From IMG/VR virus record IMGVR_UViG_2562617057_000007: DNA of 60,252 nucleotides; one strand, given 5' to 3'. The notes beneath the pieces were generated by a model. That model was not told the origin of the DNA, made no database searches, and worked only from the letters and a program-made list of their open reading frames with translations. This document shows positions 18,583 through 45,595 of this stretch, piece by piece (the stretch's first letter is position 1; every line of letters begins with the position of its first letter). This stretch comes from a virus (taxonomy: Duplodnaviria > Heunggongvirae > Uroviricota > Caudoviricetes). Made by a program: the position numbers and the translations under genes.

Positions 18583-18644
18583 CGAAAGTATTTAGCGGGC
18601 ATGAAAATGGCAAATAACGGTCAAACATCGTGGCGTTGACACTG

Positions 18645-18992
18645 ATGATATCTCTCCCTGCCGGTTCGCGTATCTGGCTGGTTGCCGGTATCACCGACAT
18701 GCGAAATGGTTTTAACGGCCTGGCATCAAAAGTTCAGAACGTCCTGAAGGATGACCCGTTCTCCGGGCATCTGTTCATCTTCCGCGGACGCCGGGGTGAC
18801 CAGATAAAAGTGTTGTGGGCTGACAGTGACGGACTGTGCCTCTTCACCAAACGCCTGGAGCGGGGCCGCTTCGTCTGGCCGGTTACCCGTGACGGCAAGG
18901 TGCACCTTACTCCGGCTCAGTTATCTATGCTTCTTGAAGGTATCAACTGGAAGCACCCGAAACGAACGGAACGCGCTGGCATCCGCATATAA
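18645..18992 (+). CDS. IS66-family OrfB (copy 1)
   Basis: MISLPAGSRIWLVAG..., identical to 21369..21716; separated from orfA by the IS21 insertion. Confidence 0.8.
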   Translation: MISLPAGSRIWLVAGITDMRNGFNGLASKVQNVLKDDPFSGHLFIFRGRRGDQIKVLWADSDGLCLFTKRLERGRFVWPVTRDGKVHLTPAQLSMLLEGINWKHPKRTERAGIRI

Positions 18993-19011
18993 CCCGTTGT
19001 AAAGTGAGGAT

Positions 19012-20583
19012 ATGGACACCTCACTTGCTCATGAGAATGCCCGCCTGCGGGCACTGTTGCAGACGCAACAGGACACCATCCGCCAGATGGCGAAATACAA
19101 CCGCCTGCTCTCACAGCGGGTGGCGGCTTATGCTTCCGAAATCAACCGGCTGAAGGCGCTGGTTGCGAAACTGCAGCGCATGCAGTTCGGTAAAAGCTCA
19201 GAAAAACTTCGCGCTAAAACCGAACGACAGATACAGGAAGCACAGGAGCGAATCAGCGCACTTCAGGAAGAAATGGCGGAAACGCTGGGTGAGCAATATG
19301 ACCCGGTACTGCCATCCGCCCTGCGCCAGTCTTCAGCCCGTAAACCGTTACCGACCTCACTTCCCCGTGAAACCCGGGTCATCCGGCCGGAAGAGGAATG
19401 CTGTCCGGCCTGTGGTGGTGACCTCAGTCCTCTGGGGTGTGATGTGTCAGAGCAACTGGAGCTTATCAGCAGCGCTTTTAAGGTTATCGAAACACAACGT
19501 CCGAAACTGGCCTGTTGCCGGTGCGACCATATCGTGCAGGCACCAGTACCTTCAAAACCCATTGCACGCAGTTATGCCGGAGCGGGGCTTCTGGCTCATA
19601 TCGTCACCGGGAAGTATGCAGACCATCTGCCGTTATACCGCCAGTCAGAAATATACCGTCGTCAGGGCGTGGAACTGAGCCGCGCCACGCTGGGGCGCTG
19701 GACCGGTGCCGTTGCTGAACTGCTGGAGCCGCTGTATGACGTGCTGCGCCAGTATGTACTGATGCCCGGTAAAGTCCATGCGGATGATATCCCCGTTCCG
19801 GTCCAGGAGCCGGGCAGTGGTAAAACAAGAACTGCCCGGCTGTGGGTCTATGTCCGTGATGACCGTAACGCCGGTTCACAGATGCCCCCGGCGGTCTGGT
19901 TCGCGTACAGCCCGGACCGGAAAGGTATCCATCCACAAAATCACCTGGCCGGTTACAGCGGTGTGCTTCAGGCCGATGCTTACGGTGGTTACCGGGTGTT
20001 ATACGAATCCGGCAGAATAACGGAAGCCGCGTGTATGGCTCATGCCCGGAGAAAAATCCACGATGTGCATGCAAGAGTGCCCACCGACATCACCACGGAA
20101 GCCCTGCAGCGTATCGGTGAACTGTATGCCATCGAGGCAGAGGTCCGGGGCTGTTCAGCAGAACAGCGTCTGGCGGCAAGAAAAGCCAGAGCCGCGCCAC
20201 TGATGCAGTCACTGTATGACTGGATACAGCAACAGATGAAAACACTGTCGCGTCACTCGGATACGGCAAAAGCGTTCGCATACCTGCTGAAACAGTGGGA
20301 TGCACTGAACGTGTACTGCAGTAATGGCTGGGTGGAAATCGACAACAACATTGCAGAGAACGCCTTACGGGGAGTGGCCGTAGGCCGGAAAAACTGGCTC
20401 TTCGCGGGTTCTGACAGCGGTGGTGAACATGCTGCGGTGTTGTACTCGCTGATCGGCACATGCCGTCTGAACAATGTGGAGCCAGAAAAGTGGCTGCGTT
20501 ACGTCATTGAACATATCCAGGACTGGCCGGCAAACCGGGTACGCGATCTGTTGCCCTGGAAAGTTGATCTGAGCTCTCAGTAA
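19012..20583 (+). CDS. IS66-family transposase OrfC (copy 1)
   Basis: 523 aa, N-terminal leucine-zipper-like region, Cys cluster CPACGG...CCRCDH, identical to copy 2. Confidence 0.85.
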
Positions 20584-20727: not shown

Positions 20728-21369
20728 ATGAATGCACGAAAAGCGGTACTGGCAGACAATCCGGAATTGATCCTGCGTGTGCTACAACTGAGATTTGACG
20801 AGTCACTGTCGTACCCGCGCATTTCTGCGCAGACCGGTATCAGCAAAACCGCCATTTTTTCTCTGGTGAGGCGATTTCACCAGGTATTCACTGACTGGCC
20901 TCTTTCCGGGGAATATTCCTGCGTGCAACTGGCCCGGGCTTTGTTCCCGGGGCGATACCCTTCAGCCCCGACAGTAACTCAGACTGTGAAAACAGAGAAA
21001 AACCGCCGGAACCGATTTTCACCGGAGTTTAAATGGAGACTTGTTCAGCAAACTCTTTTACCCGGTGCCTGTGTCGCACAAATAGCTCGTGAGAACGGAA
21101 TCAACGATAACCTGCTCTTTAACTGGCGGCATCTCTGGCGTAACGGCGGCCTGCAGCCGACCGGCGAACATGAAACATCGCTACTTCCCGTGACGTTAAC
21201 TCCGGAGCCGGATAATAAAATCCCGGCACCAGTGCAGATACCTGAACAGATGCCCGACAGTCTGTGCTGTGAGCTGGTTCTGCCGGCCGGAACTCTCAGG
21301 CTGAAAGGTGAACTGACACCGGCGTTATTACAGACACTTATCCGCGAAATGAAAGGGAGCAGCCACTGA
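20728..21369 (+). CDS. IS66-family accessory protein OrfA (copy 2)
   Basis: 213 aa; stop overlaps orfB start (TGATG). Confidence 0.8.
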   Translation: MNARKAVLADNPELILRVLQLRFDESLSYPRISAQTGISKTAIFSLVRRFHQVFTDWPLSGEYSCVQLARALFPGRYPSAPTVTQTVKTEKNRRNRFSPEFKWRLVQQTLLPGACVAQIARENGINDNLLFNWRHLWRNGGLQPTGEHETSLLPVTLTPEPDNKIPAPVQIPEQMPDSLCCELVLPAGTLRLKGELTPALLQTLIREMKGSSH

Positions 21370-21716
21370 TGATATCTCTCCCTGCCGGTTCGCGTATCTG
21401 GCTGGTTGCCGGTATCACCGACATGCGAAATGGTTTTAACGGCCTGGCATCAAAAGTTCAGAACGTCCTGAAGGATGACCCGTTCTCCGGGCATCTGTTC
21501 ATCTTCCGCGGACGCCGGGGTGACCAGATAAAAGTGTTGTGGGCTGACAGTGACGGACTGTGCCTCTTCACCAAACGCCTGGAGCGGGGCCGCTTCGTCT
21601 GGCCGGTTACCCGTGACGGCAAGGTGCACCTTACTCCGGCTCAGTTATCTATGCTTCTTGAAGGTATCAACTGGAAGCACCCGAAACGAACGGAACGCGC
21701 TGGCATCCGCATATAA
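21369..21716 (+). CDS. IS66-family OrfB (copy 2)
   Basis: 115 aa. Confidence 0.8.
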   Translation: MISLPAGSRIWLVAGITDMRNGFNGLASKVQNVLKDDPFSGHLFIFRGRRGDQIKVLWADSDGLCLFTKRLERGRFVWPVTRDGKVHLTPAQLSMLLEGINWKHPKRTERAGIRI

Positions 21717-21735
21717 CCCGTTGTAAAGTGAGGAT

Positions 21736-23307
21736 ATGGACACCTCACTTGCTCATGAGAATGCCCGCCTGCGGGCACTGTTGCAGACGCAACAGGACAC
21801 CATCCGCCAGATGGCGAAATACAACCGCCTGCTCTCACAGCGGGTGGCGGCTTATGCTTCCGAAATCAACCGGCTGAAGGCGCTGGTTGCGAAACTGCAG
21901 CGCATGCAGTTCGGTAAAAGCTCAGAAAAACTTCGCGCTAAAACCGAACGACAGATACAGGAAGCACAGGAGCGAATCAGCGCACTTCAGGAAGAAATGG
22001 CGGAAACGCTGGGTGAGCAATATGACCCGGTACTGCCATCCGCCCTGCGCCAGTCTTCAGCCCGTAAACCGTTACCGACCTCACTTCCCCGTGAAACCCG
22101 GGTCATCCGGCCGGAAGAGGAATGCTGTCCGGCCTGTGGTGGTGACCTCAGTCCTCTGGGGTGTGATGTGTCAGAGCAACTGGAGCTTATCAGCAGCGCT
22201 TTTAAGGTTATCGAAACACAACGTCCGAAACTGGCCTGTTGCCGGTGCGACCATATCGTGCAGGCACCAGTACCTTCAAAACCCATTGCACGCAGTTATG
22301 CCGGAGCGGGGCTTCTGGCTCATATCGTCACCGGGAAGTATGCAGACCATCTGCCGTTATACCGCCAGTCAGAAATATACCGTCGTCAGGGCGTGGAACT
22401 GAGCCGCGCCACGCTGGGGCGCTGGACCGGTGCCGTTGCTGAACTGCTGGAGCCGCTGTATGACGTGCTGCGCCAGTATGTACTGATGCCCGGTAAAGTC
22501 CATGCGGATGATATCCCCGTTCCGGTCCAGGAGCCGGGCAGTGGTAAAACAAGAACTGCCCGGCTGTGGGTCTATGTCCGTGATGACCGTAACGCCGGTT
22601 CACAGATGCCCCCGGCGGTCTGGTTCGCGTACAGCCCGGACCGGAAAGGTATCCATCCACAAAATCACCTGGCCGGTTACAGCGGTGTGCTTCAGGCCGA
22701 TGCTTACGGTGGTTACCGGGTGTTATACGAATCCGGCAGAATAACGGAAGCCGCGTGTATGGCTCATGCCCGGAGAAAAATCCACGATGTGCATGCAAGA
22801 GTGCCCACCGACATCACCACGGAAGCCCTGCAGCGTATCGGTGAACTGTATGCCATCGAGGCAGAGGTCCGGGGCTGTTCAGCAGAACAGCGTCTGGCGG
22901 CAAGAAAAGCCAGAGCCGCGCCACTGATGCAGTCACTGTATGACTGGATACAGCAACAGATGAAAACACTGTCGCGTCACTCGGATACGGCAAAAGCGTT
23001 CGCATACCTGCTGAAACAGTGGGATGCACTGAACGTGTACTGCAGTAATGGCTGGGTGGAAATCGACAACAACATTGCAGAGAACGCCTTACGGGGAGTG
23101 GCCGTAGGCCGGAAAAACTGGCTCTTCGCGGGTTCTGACAGCGGTGGTGAACATGCTGCGGTGTTGTACTCGCTGATCGGCACATGCCGTCTGAACAATG
23201 TGGAGCCAGAAAAGTGGCTGCGTTACGTCATTGAACATATCCAGGACTGGCCGGCAAACCGGGTACGCGATCTGTTGCCCTGGAAAGTTGATCTGAGCTC
23301 TCAGTAA
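21736..23307 (+). CDS. IS66-family transposase OrfC (copy 2)
   Basis: 523 aa. Confidence 0.85.
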
Positions 23308-34025: not shown

Positions 34026-35645
34026 ATGCCGTTACCATTCCCCTTCGATTTTAAACATCCTGATTACCAGATGGTTTTTGAATGGCGGATGGAACGCCTA
34101 CAGCGCATTCGCCAGAATCCTGAAATATTGCCTGCACTAAAACAGTTTTACCGTACCAATCCGGCTCAGTTCATCATCGACTGGGGCATGACAACGGACC
34201 CGCGTAATATTGATTATGGCCTGCCGGTGACCATTCCGTTTTTACTCTTCCCTAAGCAGGAGGAGTGGATCCACTGGATTATGGAACGCTGGAGCAATCG
34301 GGAGAATGGTATTACCGATAAATCCCGTGAAATGGGGCTCAGTTGGACCGCGATCGGACTGGCCTGCTCGCTTTGTCTCTTCAACAAAGAAATGGTTATC
34401 GGTTTCGGCTCCCGTAAAGAGGAATACGTCGACAGCACCGGTGACCCGAAAGCATTGTTCTGGAAGGCGCGCAAGTTCGTGGAAACACTACCTGTAGAGT
34501 TTCGCGGTTCGTGGAGCGAGAAGAAGCACGCGCCATATATGCGTGTTGAGTTTCCTGAAACTGGCGCGGTTATCAAAGGTGAGGCTGGCGATAATATCGG
34601 TCGTGGTGACCGTACGACCCTTTATCTTGTGGATGAGGCTGCTTTTCTCCAGCGACCATTACTTATTGATGCCGCGCTTTCCCAGACAACCCGATGTCGT
34701 ATCGATCTCTCATCGGTTAACGGCATGAACAACCCCTTCGCACAGAAGCGGCACAGTGGAAAAATCCCGGTGTTTACGTTTCACTGGCGTAGCGATCCGC
34801 GTAAAGACGATGAGTGGTATCACAAGGAGTGCGAGAAAATTGATAACCCAGTCATCGTTGCCCAGGAACTGGATCTTAATTACCAGGCATCAGCAGAAGG
34901 CATCCTGATCCCCTCAGAATGGGTACAGGCTGCGGTTGATGCACATATCAGACTGGGCATTCAGCCCGGCGGCCAACGGCTTGGTGCAATGGATGTCGCC
35001 GACGAAGGGCGGGATAAAAACGCCTGTTCGCTCCGTTATGGCATCCTGCTGAATGACGTACAGGAGTGGTCAGGTAAGGGGAGTGACATCTATGACTCTG
35101 TGGTTAAGGTTTTTGGTCTGTGCGATGACTTTGGTGCCGATGAGTTTCGCTTTGATGAGGACGGATTGGGTGCTGGCGTTCGTGGTGATGCGCGCGCTAT
35201 CAACGAACTGCGTGAAGCGGAGGGCATCTGTCAAATCACCGCCACTCCATTCCGGGGCAGCGGGAGCGTGTTTCATCCTGAAAATGAAGCTGTTCCCGGT
35301 GATAATGGTAAACCGGCTCGTCTGAATAAGGACTTTTTTGTCAATGCCAAAGCCCAGGGGTGGTGGCATCTTCGCAAATTATTCCGCAATACATTTCGTG
35401 CACTACAGGGTATGGAGTATGACCCGGATGAGATTATTTCCATCAGCAGCACAATGGAAAATAAAGACCGGTTGTTGATGGAGCTGTCACAACCTACCTG
35501 GTCAAAAAATGCCACCGGAAAAATTCTTGTGGATAAGCAACCTGACGGAACGAAATCTCCAAACCTGGCTGATTCTGTGATGATTGCTTATGCCCCGATG
35601 GAAATGCCCATCGTAATTTCTGATGACTTTATGGAGTGGATCTGA
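34026..35645 (+). CDS. terminase large subunit
   Basis: 539 aa; ATPase N-terminal domain and nuclease C-terminal domain layout, followed by portal. Confidence 0.85.
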
Positions 35646-37916: not shown

Positions 37917-39262
37917 TTATTACCGAAATGCTGGCGTTTGACCGGGCATCGGTAAGGCAGTTCGATAAAGTCGGTCGCCTCCAGATTGAGCGCAGTAATC
38001 TCAGCAAGGCGAACGTCTGCGGTTATTTCGGGTATGAAATACCGGGGGCGGAAGCGCTGGGACTCGACCCCAAAAAACTTTATCAGCTTTACCGTGACCC
38101 CGATGAACTGCGCAAGGCAGTTTCAACCTTCAACAATATTCCCGTCCTGTGCCGACACAAACCCGATTATCCGGGCGCGCCCGCGCGCGAGTACCGGGTG
38201 GGGACGACTCATGCCAACAGCGAGTTTGACGGTACCTATCTGGTTAACGGCATGTCCATCTGGGACAACTCCGCCATCGCGGGGATAGAAACGGATGAAC
38301 AACGGGAAATCTCATCGTCATATGCCTATGTGGCAGATATGACGCCGGGAACCACCCCCGACGGTGAGCCGTATGACGGCGTTATGCGGAATATCGTGGG
38401 AAATCATGTGGCCCTGGTCGGCGATGGCCGGGTAGGGTCGGACTGTCTTGTTATGGACTCTCTCCCTCAGGAGCTAAAACGCATGAAACTGAGTAAAAAA
38501 GAAGTGGCGGTGCTTACCGCGCTGGGAACCTATCTTGCGCCGCGTCTGGCGCAGGATGCGGCTCCCGGGGATTTGTTACGCCTGATGGCGCAGTATAAGC
38601 GTCCGGCAGCTATCGCCAGCGCGGTAAAAACTGCTTACAGCGAACGGCTGGCACAGGATATGGATATTGAACCGGCGGAGCTGGCGCAACTGATGGAATC
38701 AGCAGAAGCCGTACCGGAGCTGGTCGGGGATGATGATACCGGGTTAACTGACGAGTCGAAGGCATTTGATACCGACAGCCCGATGGAAAGTGTACTGGCG
38801 TTGCTGTCCGGCAAAGTTCCTGATGATGTGCTGGAAAAAATTAAATCCGCACTGTCTCCGACAACCGACGAAGCCCCCGAAACAAAAGAGGCTGATGTGA
38901 AACCCGACGATGTGAAAGTCGATAAACCTGCGATGGATGCAGCAATCAGGCTGGCAACTGACCAGGCAACGAAACGGGCTGCTGAAAATTTCCGCGCCGT
39001 CCGTGTGGCTGAAGCTGAAGTGCGACCGCTGATTGGCGATGTGGTGGCGATGGACTGCGCCGAAGATGTTTACCGTACCGCGCTGGAACAGACGGGGATC
39101 GATATTCAGGGTATTCACCCCAGTGCGTACCGCAGCATGGTGAAGTTTGCCGTTGAGCAGAAGCAGACGGCCAAATCCTCTCCCCGTGTGGCGATGGATC
39201 AGGCCAGCGCATCGACGTTTGCGGCAGATTTCCCCGGTGCAAAACTGAAACGAGGTTACTGA
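37913..39262 (+). CDS. putative prohead protease/scaffold (DUF2213-like)
   Basis: 449 aa, acidic middle region, location between head morphogenesis and capsid genes; GGAG RBS before ATG 37913. Confidence 0.55.
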
Positions 39263-39263
39263 T

Positions 39264-39746
39264 ATGAATACTTTTCAGACACACATGAACCAGTACCCGG
39301 CACCGGGTATTCCGGGGGCGTTTGCCAGTGCTAACCCTCATGCCTCGTATGTGGCGGGAGATGGCGGGCTGATTACCGGCCCTGACGGGCTGGTAATTGC
39401 CCGGTTTGCCTGGGTAACCAAAGGTGTTGCCGCTAATAAGGGGGCCGGCGCACCGGCGGGTTTTGTTCCTCGTGACGGGCAGGCTTCCATTGTGGAATGG
39501 CTGGCCGGGGACTCGAACACCATTTATCCGGGGCGTGAATGCACCCTGATGGTGTCGGGGGATTTCTGGGCGCTGACCACCACTACTGCGACGATCGGGC
39601 AGAAAGTATTTGCCTCACTGGCCACCGGGGAGATAGCCACGGGGGCGGCTGGCACCTCGATGGCGGGGTTTGTCGAAACCTGGTTTTCCGTTGCCAGCGC
39701 TGCGGCGGCAAAAGAAGTCATTAAGATCAGTACCTGGAGCAAATAA
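39264..39746 (+). CDS. head structural protein (possible decoration protein)
   Basis: 160 aa Gly/Ala-rich protein immediately upstream of major capsid gene. Confidence 0.5.
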
Positions 39747-41130: not shown

Positions 41131-41589
41131 ATGGGTACGGTGACGTTTGACTGTCGGATGTTTGTCAGTCTGTACCCGGAGTTTTCCACGGTGACACCGG
41201 AGCTACTGACGGCGGTGTTTAACCAGGCGACCGCGTTGTACCTGGATAACACGGACGACAGTCCGGTTACCGACCTGAAGGAGCGGGAACAGCTTCTGTT
41301 CCTGCTGGTTGCGCATCTGTGCGCATTGCGGGGGCTGGGAAACGGGAGAGACGGGCAGGCTGGTCTGGTGGGGCGTATCACCAGTGCGTCGGAAGGTTCT
41401 GTATCGGTATCGGTGGATAATAGCGGCAGTAATGATGCGTCGTGGTGGTATCTCCAGACCCCCTGGGGTGCTGACTACTGGCAGGCGACAGCGCCATACC
41501 GCTCAATGCAGTATCATTCCGGGGGGTCACCTTCGCGATATCCGGGGCATTATTACCGGGGATACGGGAGGGGCGTCGATGGTAAATAA
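41131..41589 (+). CDS. putative head-tail connector protein
   Basis: 152 aa ORF in structural operon. Confidence 0.5.
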
Positions 41590-42163
41590 AGTCACAGGTG
41601 GCAAACAGTTCCGGCAGAAGCTGAAACAGGTTGCCGCGAACCTTTCATTGGGTAAAAAACTCAAAGTGGGTTTTCTTGAGGGAGCAACTTACCCTGACGG
41701 TACGTCAGTGGCTTATATTGCCGCAGTTCAGGAGTTTGGTGGAAGAGCGGTCATACCCGCCCGTGAGCAGACGCTCCACTTTCGCTATAACGAAAAAACG
41801 GGAGAAACCGGGCACCGCTTTGTCAAAGCCGGTAAAGGGAATTTTGTTCAGGATGTGGTTATTCCTGAGCACACGGTCACCATTCCCCCCCGTCCGTTCT
41901 TCCGTAAGATGATCGAACATAAAAGTCCCGAATGGGGCGAAAAAATGGCGACCTTATTACGGGCGAATGATTTTGATACTGCGACCGCTCTGGTGTGTAT
42001 GGGAGAACATATCAAAGGGCAGTTGCAGATGTCTGTTCGCGACTGGGAAAGTCCGCCCAACGCTGCATCCACTGCCCGGCAAAAGGGTTTTAACAACCCG
42101 CTTATTGAAACCGGACATATGATGGACAGCGTTGATTATTCTGTAGACGGGGGCAAAAAATGA
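41579..42163 (+). CDS. hypothetical virion morphogenesis protein
   Basis: start at MVNKVTGG; the longer track ORF from 41309 overlaps the upstream gene in another frame. Confidence 0.5.
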
Positions 42164-42525
42164 ACTTTCACGGTATTGTTTCCGGCGCAGTACGTCGGGT
42201 AAATCCCTTTACAGACGCGCTGGTTTATCGTTCCCGCGGGAGTACACAGCAGGCAGATTATTCCCGCGTACCTGAGTATGAAGATCCGGTTTCCGTCAGG
42301 GTGCAAAAGCAGGCTGTCACCCAGGCTGATTTACGTCATCTTGATAATCTTAACCAGCAGGGAGTTTTCGCCACATTGTATACCGATGGTAACTGGTGCG
42401 GGCTTAACCGTGCCCGGCAACAGGGAGGCGATAAATTTGTTATTGGCGATGAAACGTGGCTGGTGATTGAGGTACCGGAAATCTGGCCTGACTGGACGAG
42501 GGTTATTGTATGCCTTCAGGTGTGA
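42160..42525 (+). CDS. hypothetical tail-associated protein
   Basis: 121 aa, coupled to neighbours. Confidence 0.5.
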   Translation: MNFHGIVSGAVRRVNPFTDALVYRSRGSTQQADYSRVPEYEDPVSVRVQKQAVTQADLRHLDNLNQQGVFATLYTDGNWCGLNRARQQGGDKFVIGDETWLVIEVPEIWPDWTRVIVCLQV

Positions 42526-43055
42526 CCCTCTCCGTTACGGAAAGCGCTCTTTATCAGGCCCTCGGTGATTATCTCCGGGGGCTTTTTTCTGATGCCGGGA
42601 TTGAACGAACGCAGCAGAACCAGGTCCCGATGCCTCAGGGGAATTTCATCACCATGACGGGCATTGATGTTACCGGATTATCCACTGCGGTAGTGGCATA
42701 TTCTGCGCCAGCGCAGGCTGGTGAGGGCTCTCAGCATATCACCCGTACCACAAAATGGCGTTGCCAGCTTGATTTCTACGGCCCTCACGTGGCAGATAAC
42801 GCGCAGGTGCTGGCAACGCTTTTCCGGTCTGAATTTTCCGTACGGCTTTTCCGGCAGGGCGGTGGGCTGATTTCCCCGCTGTATTGCTCAGAGCCCTTTA
42901 ACACCACATTCCCCAACGGTCAGCAACAGTATGAACCGCGCTGGACGCTTGATATTCAGATGCAGATTAACCCTGTGGTCACAACTTCCCTGATGTTTTT
43001 TGACAACGTGATCACCCGGACAACGGAGGCTGATAATGCCAATTCCACTCAGTAA
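42510..43055 (+). CDS. hypothetical tail-associated protein
   Basis: 181 aa immediately upstream of sheath gene. Confidence 0.5.
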
Positions 43056-44520
43056 AGATGTACAGATAAATCCCGGTGTGCTGGCTGTGGCGGGTAATGC
43101 CGTCGATCTTAACGGCCTGCTGTTGACCAGTAATCCGTTACTTCCGGTCGGCACTGTGGTTCCGTTTTCCTCTCCGGATGATGTGGCCGCGTATTTTGGT
43201 GCATTATCCGATGAGTACGCACGCGCTCAGCTTTATTTCCAGGGCTTCAAAAATGCCACCAGGACGCCGGGGCAATTGTTGTTTTCCCGTTTCAGTCCTG
43301 CCCCATCGGCGGCCTGGTTACGTAGCGGTTCGTTTAAGGGCGCGACTGTTGAACAGCTACAAAAACTTTCCGGCACGCTGATGCTGAGTATTAACGGGAA
43401 AAGCGTCAGCATTGAAGTGAATTTTAACGGTGTCGCCAGCTTCGCCGCTGCTGCAACGGCACTACAGACAGCGCTGACCGCAGCAGTGGCTACAGTGGTA
43501 TTCGATACCACACAGAATGCTTTTGTCATTACTGTCGCCGGGGCGAAACCCGGGAGTACCACGATAACGTTCGGCAGTGGATCGGCAGCAGAACTCCTGA
43601 AGATGACCAGTAACACCGGTGCGGTGATATCCCGGGGCGCGCCTGTATCTGATGTCCCTGACACAATGGCAGCCATTAAGGCCGCTTCCCAGCAATGGGC
43701 GGGTTTTTCCACGGTATCTGAGGTCACTGACGAGCAACACCTGGCGTTTTCTGCATGGGCAAACGGGCAGGGCAAGCGTTACTTTTATGTGGCATGGACA
43801 ACCAGCGGCAACGCCAGAGTAAAAGGCAGTACTGAACACATCGCTTACCAGATAATTGCTGTCAATAACTACAGCTCTGTTGTACCTGTTTTCGCGACTG
43901 ATGGTAACCGGGCTGCAGCGGTACTGGGGTATGCAGCGTGCCTTGATTTTGTCCGACCAGAGGGGCGTGTATCATTCAAGTTCCGCGAGTATGAGGGGCT
44001 GGCCGCTGATGTTACCAGTGGCAGCGATTATGATGCGCTGATCGCCGCAGGTTACAATTTCTACGGAAAATATGCGGAAAACAGTGTGGTGGAAGATTAC
44101 TGGGCGGATGGCACTATTACCGGTGATTTTAAATGGCTGGACAGTTTCTGCGGGCAAATCTGGCTGAATGCCAGTTTGCAGGGGGCGGTGATCGCGTTAT
44201 TCAAGTCAAACCAGACGATCCCCTACAACAATGAAGGGCGGGCGCTGGTTGCAGCGTCAATGAGTGACGTTATCCAGCAGTACAAACGCTGGGGAGGGAT
44301 CCGTGAAGGGGTGACACTGACGGAGGCGCAGAAGAAACAGATTAACAATGTTGTGGGGGCAGATGTTTCTTCAACGTTGTTTGCCACCGGCTATTACCTG
44401 TATATCGGCGATATGCTTCCCTCTTTGCGGGCAACCCGTAGCAGTCCGTCCTGTACGCTCTGGTACTGTGACGGCGGTAGTATCCAGAAACTTGTTATTG
44501 CATCCACGGAGGTCCAGTAA
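43036..44520 (+). CDS. contractile tail sheath protein
   Basis: 494 aa followed by 148 aa tube-size gene, frameshifted chaperone and tape measure: canonical myovirus order. Confidence 0.75.
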
Positions 44521-44967
44521 ATGTCGGGTAACAACAACACCATCACTGCGGCGGATGCCATTATCACGCTGACAGTGAATAATCTGTATCCCTCCGGCGT
44601 ACGACTTCAGGGATTTGCAACAGATAACGTTTATGGCACCGATCCACTGGTACTGGCGGAAACTGCCCGCGGTATTGACGGTAAACTGTCCGCGGGATTT
44701 GTGTACAGCAACATTATCCAGACGTTTCATATCATGCCGGATTCCCCCAGCCGGGATATTTTTGATACCTGGTCAACCACATCCCGGGCCAGTCGGGCTG
44801 TATTCCGTTGTAACGCTGTCGTCCTGCTTCCGGCGATTGGCCGTAAATATACCTGCGTGAATGGCGTACTCAAACAATGGAAAGCGCTGCCTGATGCAGC
44901 TCGTACGTTGCAGCCAGGGCAGGCGGTTATTGAGTGGGAAACCATTACTCCGGAGGTTTTTAACTGA
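44521..44967 (+). CDS. tail tube protein
   Basis: 148 aa directly after sheath. Confidence 0.7.
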   Translation: MSGNNNTITAADAIITLTVNNLYPSGVRLQGFATDNVYGTDPLVLAETARGIDGKLSAGFVYSNIIQTFHIMPDSPSRDIFDTWSTTSRASRAVFRCNAVVLLPAIGRKYTCVNGVLKQWKALPDAARTLQPGQAVIEWETITPEVFN

Positions 44968-45371
44968 TGGCCCGTAAAGAGAAATTTATCACTATTGAAG
45001 GTCAGGGACGGGATAAGGGCAAGGTATTTCATCTTACCGAAATGTCTGCCTCACAGGCGGAATGGTGGGCGATGCGTGCCATTATGGCAATGGGGCGTGG
45101 TGGCGTGGAGTTACCGGATGATGTTCGTAGTCTGGGGATGGCTGCGCTTGCCCTTGAAGGGCTGAAAGCATTATCGAAAATTCCGCCTGATGAGGCGCGT
45201 CCGTTGATGGATGAAATGATGGACTGTGTGCAGTTTGTTCCCGATCCGAAAAAACGCAGCATCCGGAGACCGCTTGTTGAAGAGGATATTGAAGAAATCA
45301 TTACCCGTCTTAATCTGCGTGCGGAGGTCTTTAAGCTGCATGTGGATTTTTTCGCTACCGTCGTCAGCTAG
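44967..45371 (+). CDS. tail assembly chaperone (short form)
   Basis: 134 aa between tube and tape measure; contains slippery heptamer T-TTT-TTC near 3' end. Confidence 0.65.
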   Translation: MARKEKFITIEGQGRDKGKVFHLTEMSASQAEWWAMRAIMAMGRGGVELPDDVRSLGMAALALEGLKALSKIPPDEARPLMDEMMDCVQFVPDPKKRSIRRPLVEEDIEEIITRLNLRAEVFKLHVDFFATVVS

Positions 45372-45595
45372 ATATCCCCCCGCGTTATCTCGACCCCGAC
45401 AGACCGTTCGGGGTGGTGGATTACGTTAATGTTCCCCGTACCATTGCGACCGTTATCTCCTCCGGTAAGGCTTCAAAAGCTGAACTGGATTCTGTCCTTG
45501 GTGTGCAGGACTTATGGGATCTGCTGGAAATAATTCATGTGGATGCCCATAACGAACAGGTGATACAGGAGAACAGAAATGGCGCAGGTACTTGA
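45347..45595 (+). other. programmed -1 frameshift site and extension of tail chaperone
   Basis: slippery T TTT TTC at 45347..45353 in correct register; -1 frame stays open to 45595. Confidence 0.55.

Follow-up and report, generated by a model that had tools for sequence, protein, structure and literature searches.

A short gene lying between the tail tube and tape measure genes of a prophage of E. coli/Shigella type very probably gives rise to two predicted tail assembly chaperone forms, of 134 and 209 aa, by a programmed -1 frameshift at U_UUU_UUC. On comparative grounds, the conserved -1 frameshift site of this predicted chaperone gene can be regarded as confirmed and genuine. Direct support is provided by the anatomy of the locus, the preservation of both the frame relationship and the slippery nucleotides throughout the family, the lack of an independent start for the second reading frame and a natural in-frame fusion of the two parts. 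The window, i.e., the whole stretch of DNA analysed, comprises 60,252 nucleotides, and all coordinates given below refer to it.

Organization of the Locus

The following features define the locus:

44967..45371, plus strand: short chaperone ORF (G-like, 134 aa), from ATG to TAG 45369..45371
45335..45371, plus strand: two-frame interval of 37 nt, bounded by TAA 45332..45334 (-1 frame) and TAG 45369..45371 (0 frame)
45347..45353, plus strand: slippery heptamer T_TTT_TTC in the X_XXY_YYZ register, 0-frame codons GAT TTT TTC
45353..45595, plus strand: -1 frame extension (T-like part), 80 codons and TGA 45593..45595
join(44967..45353, 45353..45595), plus strand: predicted long product (GT-like fusion, 209 aa) obtained by a conceptual -1 shift

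The short ORF begins with ATG 44967, which overlaps the stop codon of the tube gene (TGATG) and is preceded by GGAGG 10 nt upstream. Its 3' codons are CAT GTG GAT TTT TTC GCT ACC GTC GTC AGC TAG. An earlier sequence-only reading of this DNA had placed a heptamer T TTT TTC at 45347..45353 in the correct register, and direct reading bears this out; the heptamer also holds the tetramer T_TTT. It had been described as lying nine codons before the stop, whereas the first slippery codon (TTT 45348) stands seven codons before it, and five sense codons follow the heptamer.

In the -1 frame, TAA 45332..45334 is the last stop before the site and the frame is open from 45335; a productive -1 shift is possible only within 45335..45371, the interval into which the heptamer falls. 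Counted from the last heptamer base (45353), this frame does remain open for the further 80 codons that had been claimed, up to TGA at 45593..45595. The extension was said to stop directly ahead of the tape measure gene; it actually overlaps the ATG of that gene (45579) by 17 nt. The fusion would be composed of 129 frame-0 residues up to ...HVDFF, followed by RYRRQLDIPP...NGAGT.

At the local base composition, 80 open codons would be found by chance with P ~0.025, and an in-register canonical heptamer within 12 codons with P ~0.05 (uniform composition assumed). Taken alone, this locus is only moderately unlikely by chance, at about 1e-3. Since this single-locus chance is not negligible, the verdict rests on comparison with relatives.

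Related Loci and Conservation of the Reading Frame

The conceptual fusion was used as a tblastn query against 50,697 phage records, 134 of which were matched. Each listed match was split into two pieces, i.e., into two frames. Hosts of the matched phages include Pantoea, Burkholderia, Pseudomonas, Klebsiella, Aeromonas, Edwardsiella, Vibrio, Acetobacter, Acinetobacter and others. Loci were fetched from phage records (13), from IMG/VR (80) and from a species-level genome collection (26); the last were found via peptide patterns located far from the slip site, in a scan that used a 7-sequence alignment. The related loci fetched numbered 121, with 88 distinct and 87 scorable at the slip site.

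The conserved downstream domain lies in the -1 frame and is open in 85 of the 88 distinct loci, and the -1 frame is open for 69–89 codons past the site in nearly all scorable sequences (85/87). In one locus (L014) this frame closes after 25 codons, and three single-base indels in homopolymer runs move T to the 0 frame; these indels look like sequencing errors. Another (L074), unscorable at the site, carries a nonsense codon in G, and its T is still in the -1 frame. In Paraburkholderia panacisoli (L110) the T domain is found in the +1/-2 frame and the -1 frame closes after 17 codons. The -1 arrangement together with the slippery site is kept across 16 clusters at <70% protein identity, which span Enterobacterales, Burkholderia, Pseudomonas, Aeromonas, Acinetobacter, Vibrio, Acetobacter and others.

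Nucleotide-Level Constraint at the Slip Site

The tetramer U_UUU, in the form NNT TTT, is present in all 87 scorable sequences. The site variants are distributed as follows:

GAT TTT TTC: 62 sequences
GGT/GAT TTT TTA: 6 sequences
GAT TTT TTG: 3 sequences
GAT/AGT TTT TTT: 4 sequences
GGT TTT TTC: 1 sequence
GAG GGT TTT or xxG GGT TTT (G_GGT_TTT): 7 sequences
non-canonical sites keeping T_TTT alone: 4 sequences

The non-canonical sites are GCT TTT GTA in two Klebsiella phages, GAT TTT TCG in L112 and GCT TTT CTG in L120. Homologues lacking the slippery site and the extended frame, which the sequence-only reading had named as counter-evidence, do not characterize this family: a canonical heptamer (T_TTT_TTN or G_GGT_TTT) is found in 83 of the 87 sequences, and the frame is open in the 85 counted above.

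Synonymous choice at the site is fixed, Asp being encoded by GAT (71/71) and Phe by TTT (82/82). Nearby synonymous positions vary freely: Phe five codons upstream is TTC in 55 sequences and TTT in 10, His two codons upstream of the site is CAT in 44 and CAC in 38, and four codons are in use for the adjacent Val. Given the amino acids and the local codon usage, the joint probability of NNT TTT is ~1e-16, an approximation in which the 16 clusters are treated as independent. One representative per <70%-identity cluster entered this calculation, with codon usage taken from long ORFs of the same locus. Some of the clusters are GC-rich, and TTT makes up just 8–25% of their Phe codons. Synonymous variation is also reduced in the codons just 3' of the site (ACC 31/31, GCC 58/61), as expected for dual coding.

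An identical protein (...DFFRYRR...) could be produced by transcriptional slippage, in which RNA polymerase adds one U on the T6 run (45347..45352) and a minority in-frame mRNA results. Efficient transcriptional slippage in enterobacteria usually needs runs of 8–9 or more. The site is a homopolymer run indeed, with T6 at this locus and T7 in a small number of relatives (L113, L115), but many relatives (Burkholderia, Aeromonas, Rhodovarius) have T4 or T5 only, within a register-correct G_GGT_TTT. Furthermore, the register of the run with respect to the 0 frame is kept in 87/87, which such a mechanism does not require. Two literature observations speak for polymerase slippage: E. coli genes contain fewer U7/A7 runs than expected in every frame, a deficit partly attributed to transcriptional slippage (PMC4066793), and the title of a work on T4-like phage TACs (reference 76 in PMC12846349) suggests, as far as a title can, non-translational mechanisms in some lineages. 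On balance, transcriptional slippage is an unlikely source of the long product.

The Extension as Probable Part of a Fusion Protein

The -1 peptide of relatives is conserved from the first post-slip codon, ahead of every candidate start. It starts with an Arg-rich segment (R.RR / RRRP / W.RR), followed by D/E..P; in this locus the Arg-rich linker is RYRRQLDIPP. The extension core is Y.NVPRTIA.V.S...A...EL..V.G..DL.DLLEI..VD.HN., with the fuller consensus Y.NVPRTIA.V.S..LATL.ELQTVYG..DL.DLLEI..VD.HN. Candidate starts in the aligned -1 peptides are scattered, and none is conserved. The 89-codon extension of Acetobacter phage phiAO1 (L011) is devoid of any ATG, GTG or TTG, and the only candidate start of Burkholderia phiE131 (L003), like that of a Photorhabdus prophage (L098), is a GTG inside the conserved core.

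An exhaustive HMMER search with the 80-aa extension against 1.84 billion representatives yielded 139 relatives. Most of them had been called as 39–97-aa ORFs with N-termini anywhere from query positions 3 to 40; such scattering is the usual output of gene callers where no real start exists.

In RefSeq (PGAP) the locus is represented by two separate hypothetical proteins, the second of which starts from the GTG equivalent to 45413:

45413..45595, plus strand: GTG-start 60-aa ORF, a separate RefSeq hypothetical protein

If this annotation were correct, the 134-aa and 60-aa proteins would be products of two independent genes and the heptamer would be incidental. Several phage records present the homologues in the same way as the PGAP CDS, and a GTG with a nearby G-rich stretch does exist. 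However, GGG abuts this GTG without any spacing, there is no spaced SD, and the start is not conserved in the relatives described above, being absent from L011 and confined to the core in L003 and L098. Conservation of the -1 frame begins at the slip site, 20 codons before the GTG, and the synonymous sites of the heptamer are frozen. In a natural one-ORF fusion, in addition, the two parts meet precisely where the junction was predicted. Two independent genes are thus very improbable, and the 60-aa ORF is interpreted as the probable C-terminal part of the fusion and not as an independent gene.

The natural fusion, one of the 139 relatives, is a metagenomic protein of 199 aa (P0188), in which G and T form one ORF colinear with residues 8–200 of the conceptual fusion (35% identity, E 3e-32). 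At the predicted shift point it keeps the junction ...LHVDFF. In its contig (L121) the T run is broken, the site being GAT TTC TTT, and the fused gene lies directly before a downstream ORF that starts at its stop. Hence, where G and T are fused in frame, the slippery run is not maintained. A second apparent in-frame fusion is P0144 (178 aa). Annotated fusions were also sought among close relatives and none was found, all top matches being 134-aa short forms.

Tail Module and Protein Families

The genes around the chaperone locus form a contractile-tail module, including the following members:

42510..43055: neck terminator
43036..44520, plus strand: tail sheath, 494 aa (Pfam DUF3383, 2e-140; PHROG 205 'tail sheath')
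44521..44967, plus strand: tail tube protein, 148 aa (Pfam E217_Gp32, 1.8e-17; PHROG 1964)
45579..47600, plus strand: tape measure / lytic tail protein, 673 aa (PHROG 2013, 1.8e-246; C-terminal Pfam SLT, 8.9e-26)

SLT is a transglycosylase domain, and the tape measure gene has AGGAG 7 nt upstream of its ATG. It is followed by genes for a Dit-like baseplate protein, plug, hub, spike, baseplate J, DUF2612 and tail fibres. The same succession of tube, chaperone pair and tape measure recurs in 12 phage relatives that carry annotation.

The short ORF matches PHROG 1932 'tail assembly chaperone' (E 3e-59), the -1 extension matches PHROG 3976 (function unknown; E 5e-32), and PHROG 18181 is matched by the fusion across the junction (residues 56–198). 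Pfam gave no match for the short ORF or for the fusion, and a PDB profile search gave no sequence match. When the AlphaFold model of the 134-aa protein, of only moderate confidence (pLDDT 69.5), was compared with the PDB by Foldseek, no meaningful fold match was revealed; the best BFVD neighbours of this model are myovirus proteins annotated by name as 'tail assembly chaperone' and an Acinetobacter AB1 homologue. Database homologues of the short ORF number 353, and among the 120 listed most are 'hypothetical proteins' of 133–135 aa. The predicted name 'chaperone' rests on the position of the gene, the PHROG name and the names of the predicted-structure neighbours. Membership in the tail-chaperone functional class appears well supported by position, architecture and conservation.

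Search for RNA Stimulators

Frameshift stimulators were sought both downstream and upstream of the heptamer. The pseudoknot-free downstream fold of 45354..45440 (87 nt) showed no significant structure relative to shuffled sequences (MFE z = -0.31), nor did the wider fold of 45330..45480 by the same method (z +0.23). A hairpin or pseudoknot of the dnaX / IS3 type would be placed 5–9 nt past the heptamer; the first stable hairpin here is at +29. In 20 relatives folded downstream, z ranged from -1.95 to +1.2 with no common structure, and Rfam gave no match at the locus. The downstream stem-loop suggested for checking together with the original reading therefore did not appear in significant or conserved form, either here or in those relatives. 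Two individual elements were considered:

45382..45426, plus strand: the sole stable predicted downstream hairpin, starting 29 nt after the heptamer
45323..45328, plus strand: GGAGGT (SD-like), 18 nt upstream of the heptamer, the dnaX / IS3 expectation being ~10–14 nt

The hairpin was rejected as a stimulator, its z being near that of the shuffles and its structure not conserved in relatives. The SD-like element is a possible but unsupported upstream stimulator, as it is not conserved across lineages. It is present in some lineages (L008, L111) and absent in many (L002, L004, L006, L011, L012); five of the 16 cluster representatives lack it, and its spacing varies. With no stimulator detected, the efficiency of the shift may be low.

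Proposed Mechanism

According to the programmed -1 frameshift scheme, most ribosomes would stop at TAG 45369..45371 and produce the 134-aa short form. A minority would slip one base back on U_UUU_UUC (45347..45353), where the single E. coli tRNA-Phe (anticodon GAA) could re-pair with UUU in the P and A sites. The slipped ribosomes would then read the -1 frame to 45595, yielding a protein of 209 aa with the shared N-terminus and an 80-aa C-terminal domain. If lambda gpG/gpGT is taken as a guide, the shared N-terminal part would coat the tape measure protein encoded next, and the extra domain of the rare long form would recruit the tail tube protein. If the long form does recruit the tube protein in this way, the fixed ratio set by slippage would matter for tail assembly.

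The slippery sequence alone seems to suffice for the slip. In E. coli assays, H_HH.U_UU.Y heptamers were among the most efficient, and U_UU.U_UU.C, which is under-represented in E. coli genes, supported a >0.1% shift without any stimulator (PMC4066793). In the presence of the IS3 pseudoknot, the tetramers U_UU.C and U_UU.U ranked second and third, and R_RR.U_UU.Y was still efficient (PMC4066793). These measurements cover every site variant of the chaperone family. The ribosomal nature of the slippage, the efficiency of the shift and the functions of the short and long forms are inferred.

A further reading could be built on the same observations. U_UUU is the sole invariant RNA feature, no stimulator was detected and L121 carries a fused gene; taken together, this would suggest non-classical control of the ratio and a dispensable short form. 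Codon context, a dual-coding GCC/CGC repeat or the nascent chain may set the ratio instead. In L110, with T in the +1/-2 frame, a -2 shift on the U6 run could take place. As a joint proposition (a ratio set without a classical stimulator, a short form dispensable in some phages and a possible -2 shift in L110) this is rather doubtful, and it is put forward tentatively.

Comparison with Known Systems

The nearest textbook counterpart is lambda gpG/gpGT. In both systems two overlapping ORFs are located between the major tail gene and the tape measure gene, the second ORF, read in the -1 frame, lacks a start of its own, the heptamer lies near the end of the first ORF and no RNA stimulator is evident. 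Lambda G/GT is described as dependent on the slippery sequence alone. In contrast to these common properties, lambda G/T has no detectable sequence or Pfam relationship to this locus, its heptamer is G_GGA_AAG instead of U_UUU_UUC, and the phage considered here is contractile-tailed. No relationship to lambda gpG itself can be demonstrated. For long-tailed phages, a conserved frameshift in tail assembly is textbook knowledge (Xu, Hendrix & Duda 2004, cited in PMC7266877 and PMC10885494).

A true homologue is known in Burkholderia phage PhiE067, for which Hammerl et al. described a 'tape measure protein chaperone' gp16.1 of 204 aa and proposed a GGGTTTT shift at G127 of gp16 (PMC7266877). Its gene order is the same, and its 204 aa compare with 209 aa here. 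The fusion matches PE067, phiE058 and phiE131 with 51% identity (tblastn, two pieces; E 1e-37 to 7e-38). In the codon alignment TTT is shared: the Burkholderia G_GGT_TTT ends on it, and T_TTT_TTC here starts on it. The two systems differ in that G_GGT_TTT is placed one codon earlier, so that UUU is the A-site codon in PhiE067 and the P-site codon here; the short form of PhiE067 also has a longer 0-frame tail. The original assignment of the locus to the G/GT type of -1 frameshift is supported by this proposal (PMC7266877), as well as by gene order, PHROG 1932 and family-wide conservation.

A 2025 study reported a conserved GTTTTT -1 site at the TAC-N end in Vandenendeviridae (Pakpunavirus) and Andersonviridae (PMC12846349). 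The downstream piece of TAC was found to be routinely mis-annotated, either as a separate hypothetical gene or as intergenic (PMC12846349). Pakpunavirus and Andersonviridae TAC-N/TAC-NC resemble the present case in that they belong to myovirus tails of the related DUF3383-sheath type and in that the case for them was likewise built on a conserved open -1 frame. Unlike the present case, they represent other protein families by sequence, which were absent from the search matches, and the phages are lytic with large genomes.

The orfA/orfB pair of IS3-family elements also employs a -1 slip on an X_XXY_YYZ heptamer to produce a fusion protein at a set ratio. An example exists within the window, A_AAA_AAG at 55324..55318 on the minus strand. 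IS3-type sites typically have downstream pseudoknots or hairpins and/or an upstream SD, whereas none was detected at the chaperone site.

Prophage State and Annotation

Prophages with 99.9–100% identity to the locus region occur in 9 of 5426 complete E. coli genomes, and megablast of 43000..47700 against phage records gave no match. In terms of nucleotide sequence, only prophage copies of the element are known. An IS3-family element splits a tail-fibre gene at 54413..55686, and the entire prophage is therefore probably defective. The tail assembly module had been taken to be intact; this holds for the sheath-to-baseplate genes, which are open, but not for the interrupted tail-fibre gene. With an IS in this gene, the signal may no longer be used in the host. 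That the site is a mere relic of a dead prophage, inherited but neither expressed nor needed, is a very improbable explanation: the IS3-family insertion, the rarity of the element in those nine genomes, often with further IS insertions, and a frameshifted head-tail gene in a neighbouring strain are compatible with it, but decay bears on present use and not on the nature of the signal, and in this prophage the reading frames of G, T, tube, sheath and tape measure are uninterrupted.

An apparently 'frameshifted' gene at a C7 tract was also considered and proved intact in this window. A window-wide scan for a heptamer followed by a long extension returned, besides the chaperone and IS3 sites, 38946..39341, 35273..35515 and 41631..41912; these were rejected as spurious, being antisense or off-frame ORFs inside real genes.

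The frameshift is unannotated in RefSeq for this prophage; its kind is known, and the same shift was proposed earlier for a homologue. RefSeq and most phage records contain either two 'hypothetical proteins' or a gap of ~200 nt at this position, and the correct representation would be a joined 209-aa CDS together with the 134-aa form. The short form could be named tail assembly chaperone. The main value of the locus lies in annotation, and knowledge of phage tail assembly or recoding is unchanged by it. The family data constitute a clean comparative case for slippery-sequence-only frameshifting, comprising 16 divergent clusters, frozen sites and one fusion.

Variant chaperone loci among the relatives

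The tail assembly chaperone and its extension are carried by a single ORF of 199 aa in the related locus on JGI metagenome contig Ga0596940_0213146 (L121:985-1584), where the position of the slip site reads GAT TTC TTT. This locus is a natural in-frame fusion of chaperone and extension without a slippery run. In Paraburkholderia panacisoli (NZ_VTUZ01000005.1, L110:1501-2122), GAT TTT TTC is unbroken, although, counted from the chaperone ORF, it is the +1/-2 frame that encodes the conserved T domain (the extension part). This arrangement could result from an indel or assembly error, from decay of the prophage, or from a -2/+1 event.

The Klebsiella branch, represented by phages RCIP0114 (L006) and PDP110P1 (L013), retains the open 80-codon -1 frame. 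Its site is GCT TTT GTA, the slippery sequence being the tetramer T_TTT only, and no canonical heptamer is found at any point of the 70-94-nt overlap. In Burkholderia phage phiE131 (L003:2114-2605) the extension is separated from the tape measure gene by an inserted HNH homing endonuclease gene, whereas in the other relatives the two abut or overlap.

Homopolymer tract in the head-tail region

41885..41891, C7 tract inside ORF 41579..42163, a head-tail region gene

This ORF is unbroken in the window. The copy in E. coli CFSAN029787 has C6 and is labelled 'frameshifted' by RefSeq; either the tract length differs between strains or the difference is an error of assembly.

Insertion sequences

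An IS66-family element is present twice, in near-tandem copies:

18630..20583, copy 1 (523-aa TnpC at 19012..20583)
21369..23307, copy 2 (523-aa TnpC at 21736..23307)

A tail-fibre gene is split by an IS3-family element, which breaks the Pfam phage_tail_N match into profile positions 1-91 before it and 84-132 after it:

54413..55686, - strand, IS3-family (IS600-like) element (HTH_Tnp_1 and rve)
55686..55276, - strand, its orfA (HTH_Tnp_1)
55318..54413, - strand, its orfB (rve)
55324..55318, - strand, its own -1 slip site, A_AAA_AAG
54138..54488 and 55705..56742, its flanks

Effector gene at the prophage edge

An IpaH-type gene directly adjoins the tail-fibre end of the prophage, on its outer side:

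57496..59322, - strand, IpaH-type type III effector gene (608 aa; LRR_TTSS and NEL E3 ubiquitin ligase)

Its place beside the tail-fibre end marks the prophage as an ipaH carrier of the Shigella/EIEC kind.
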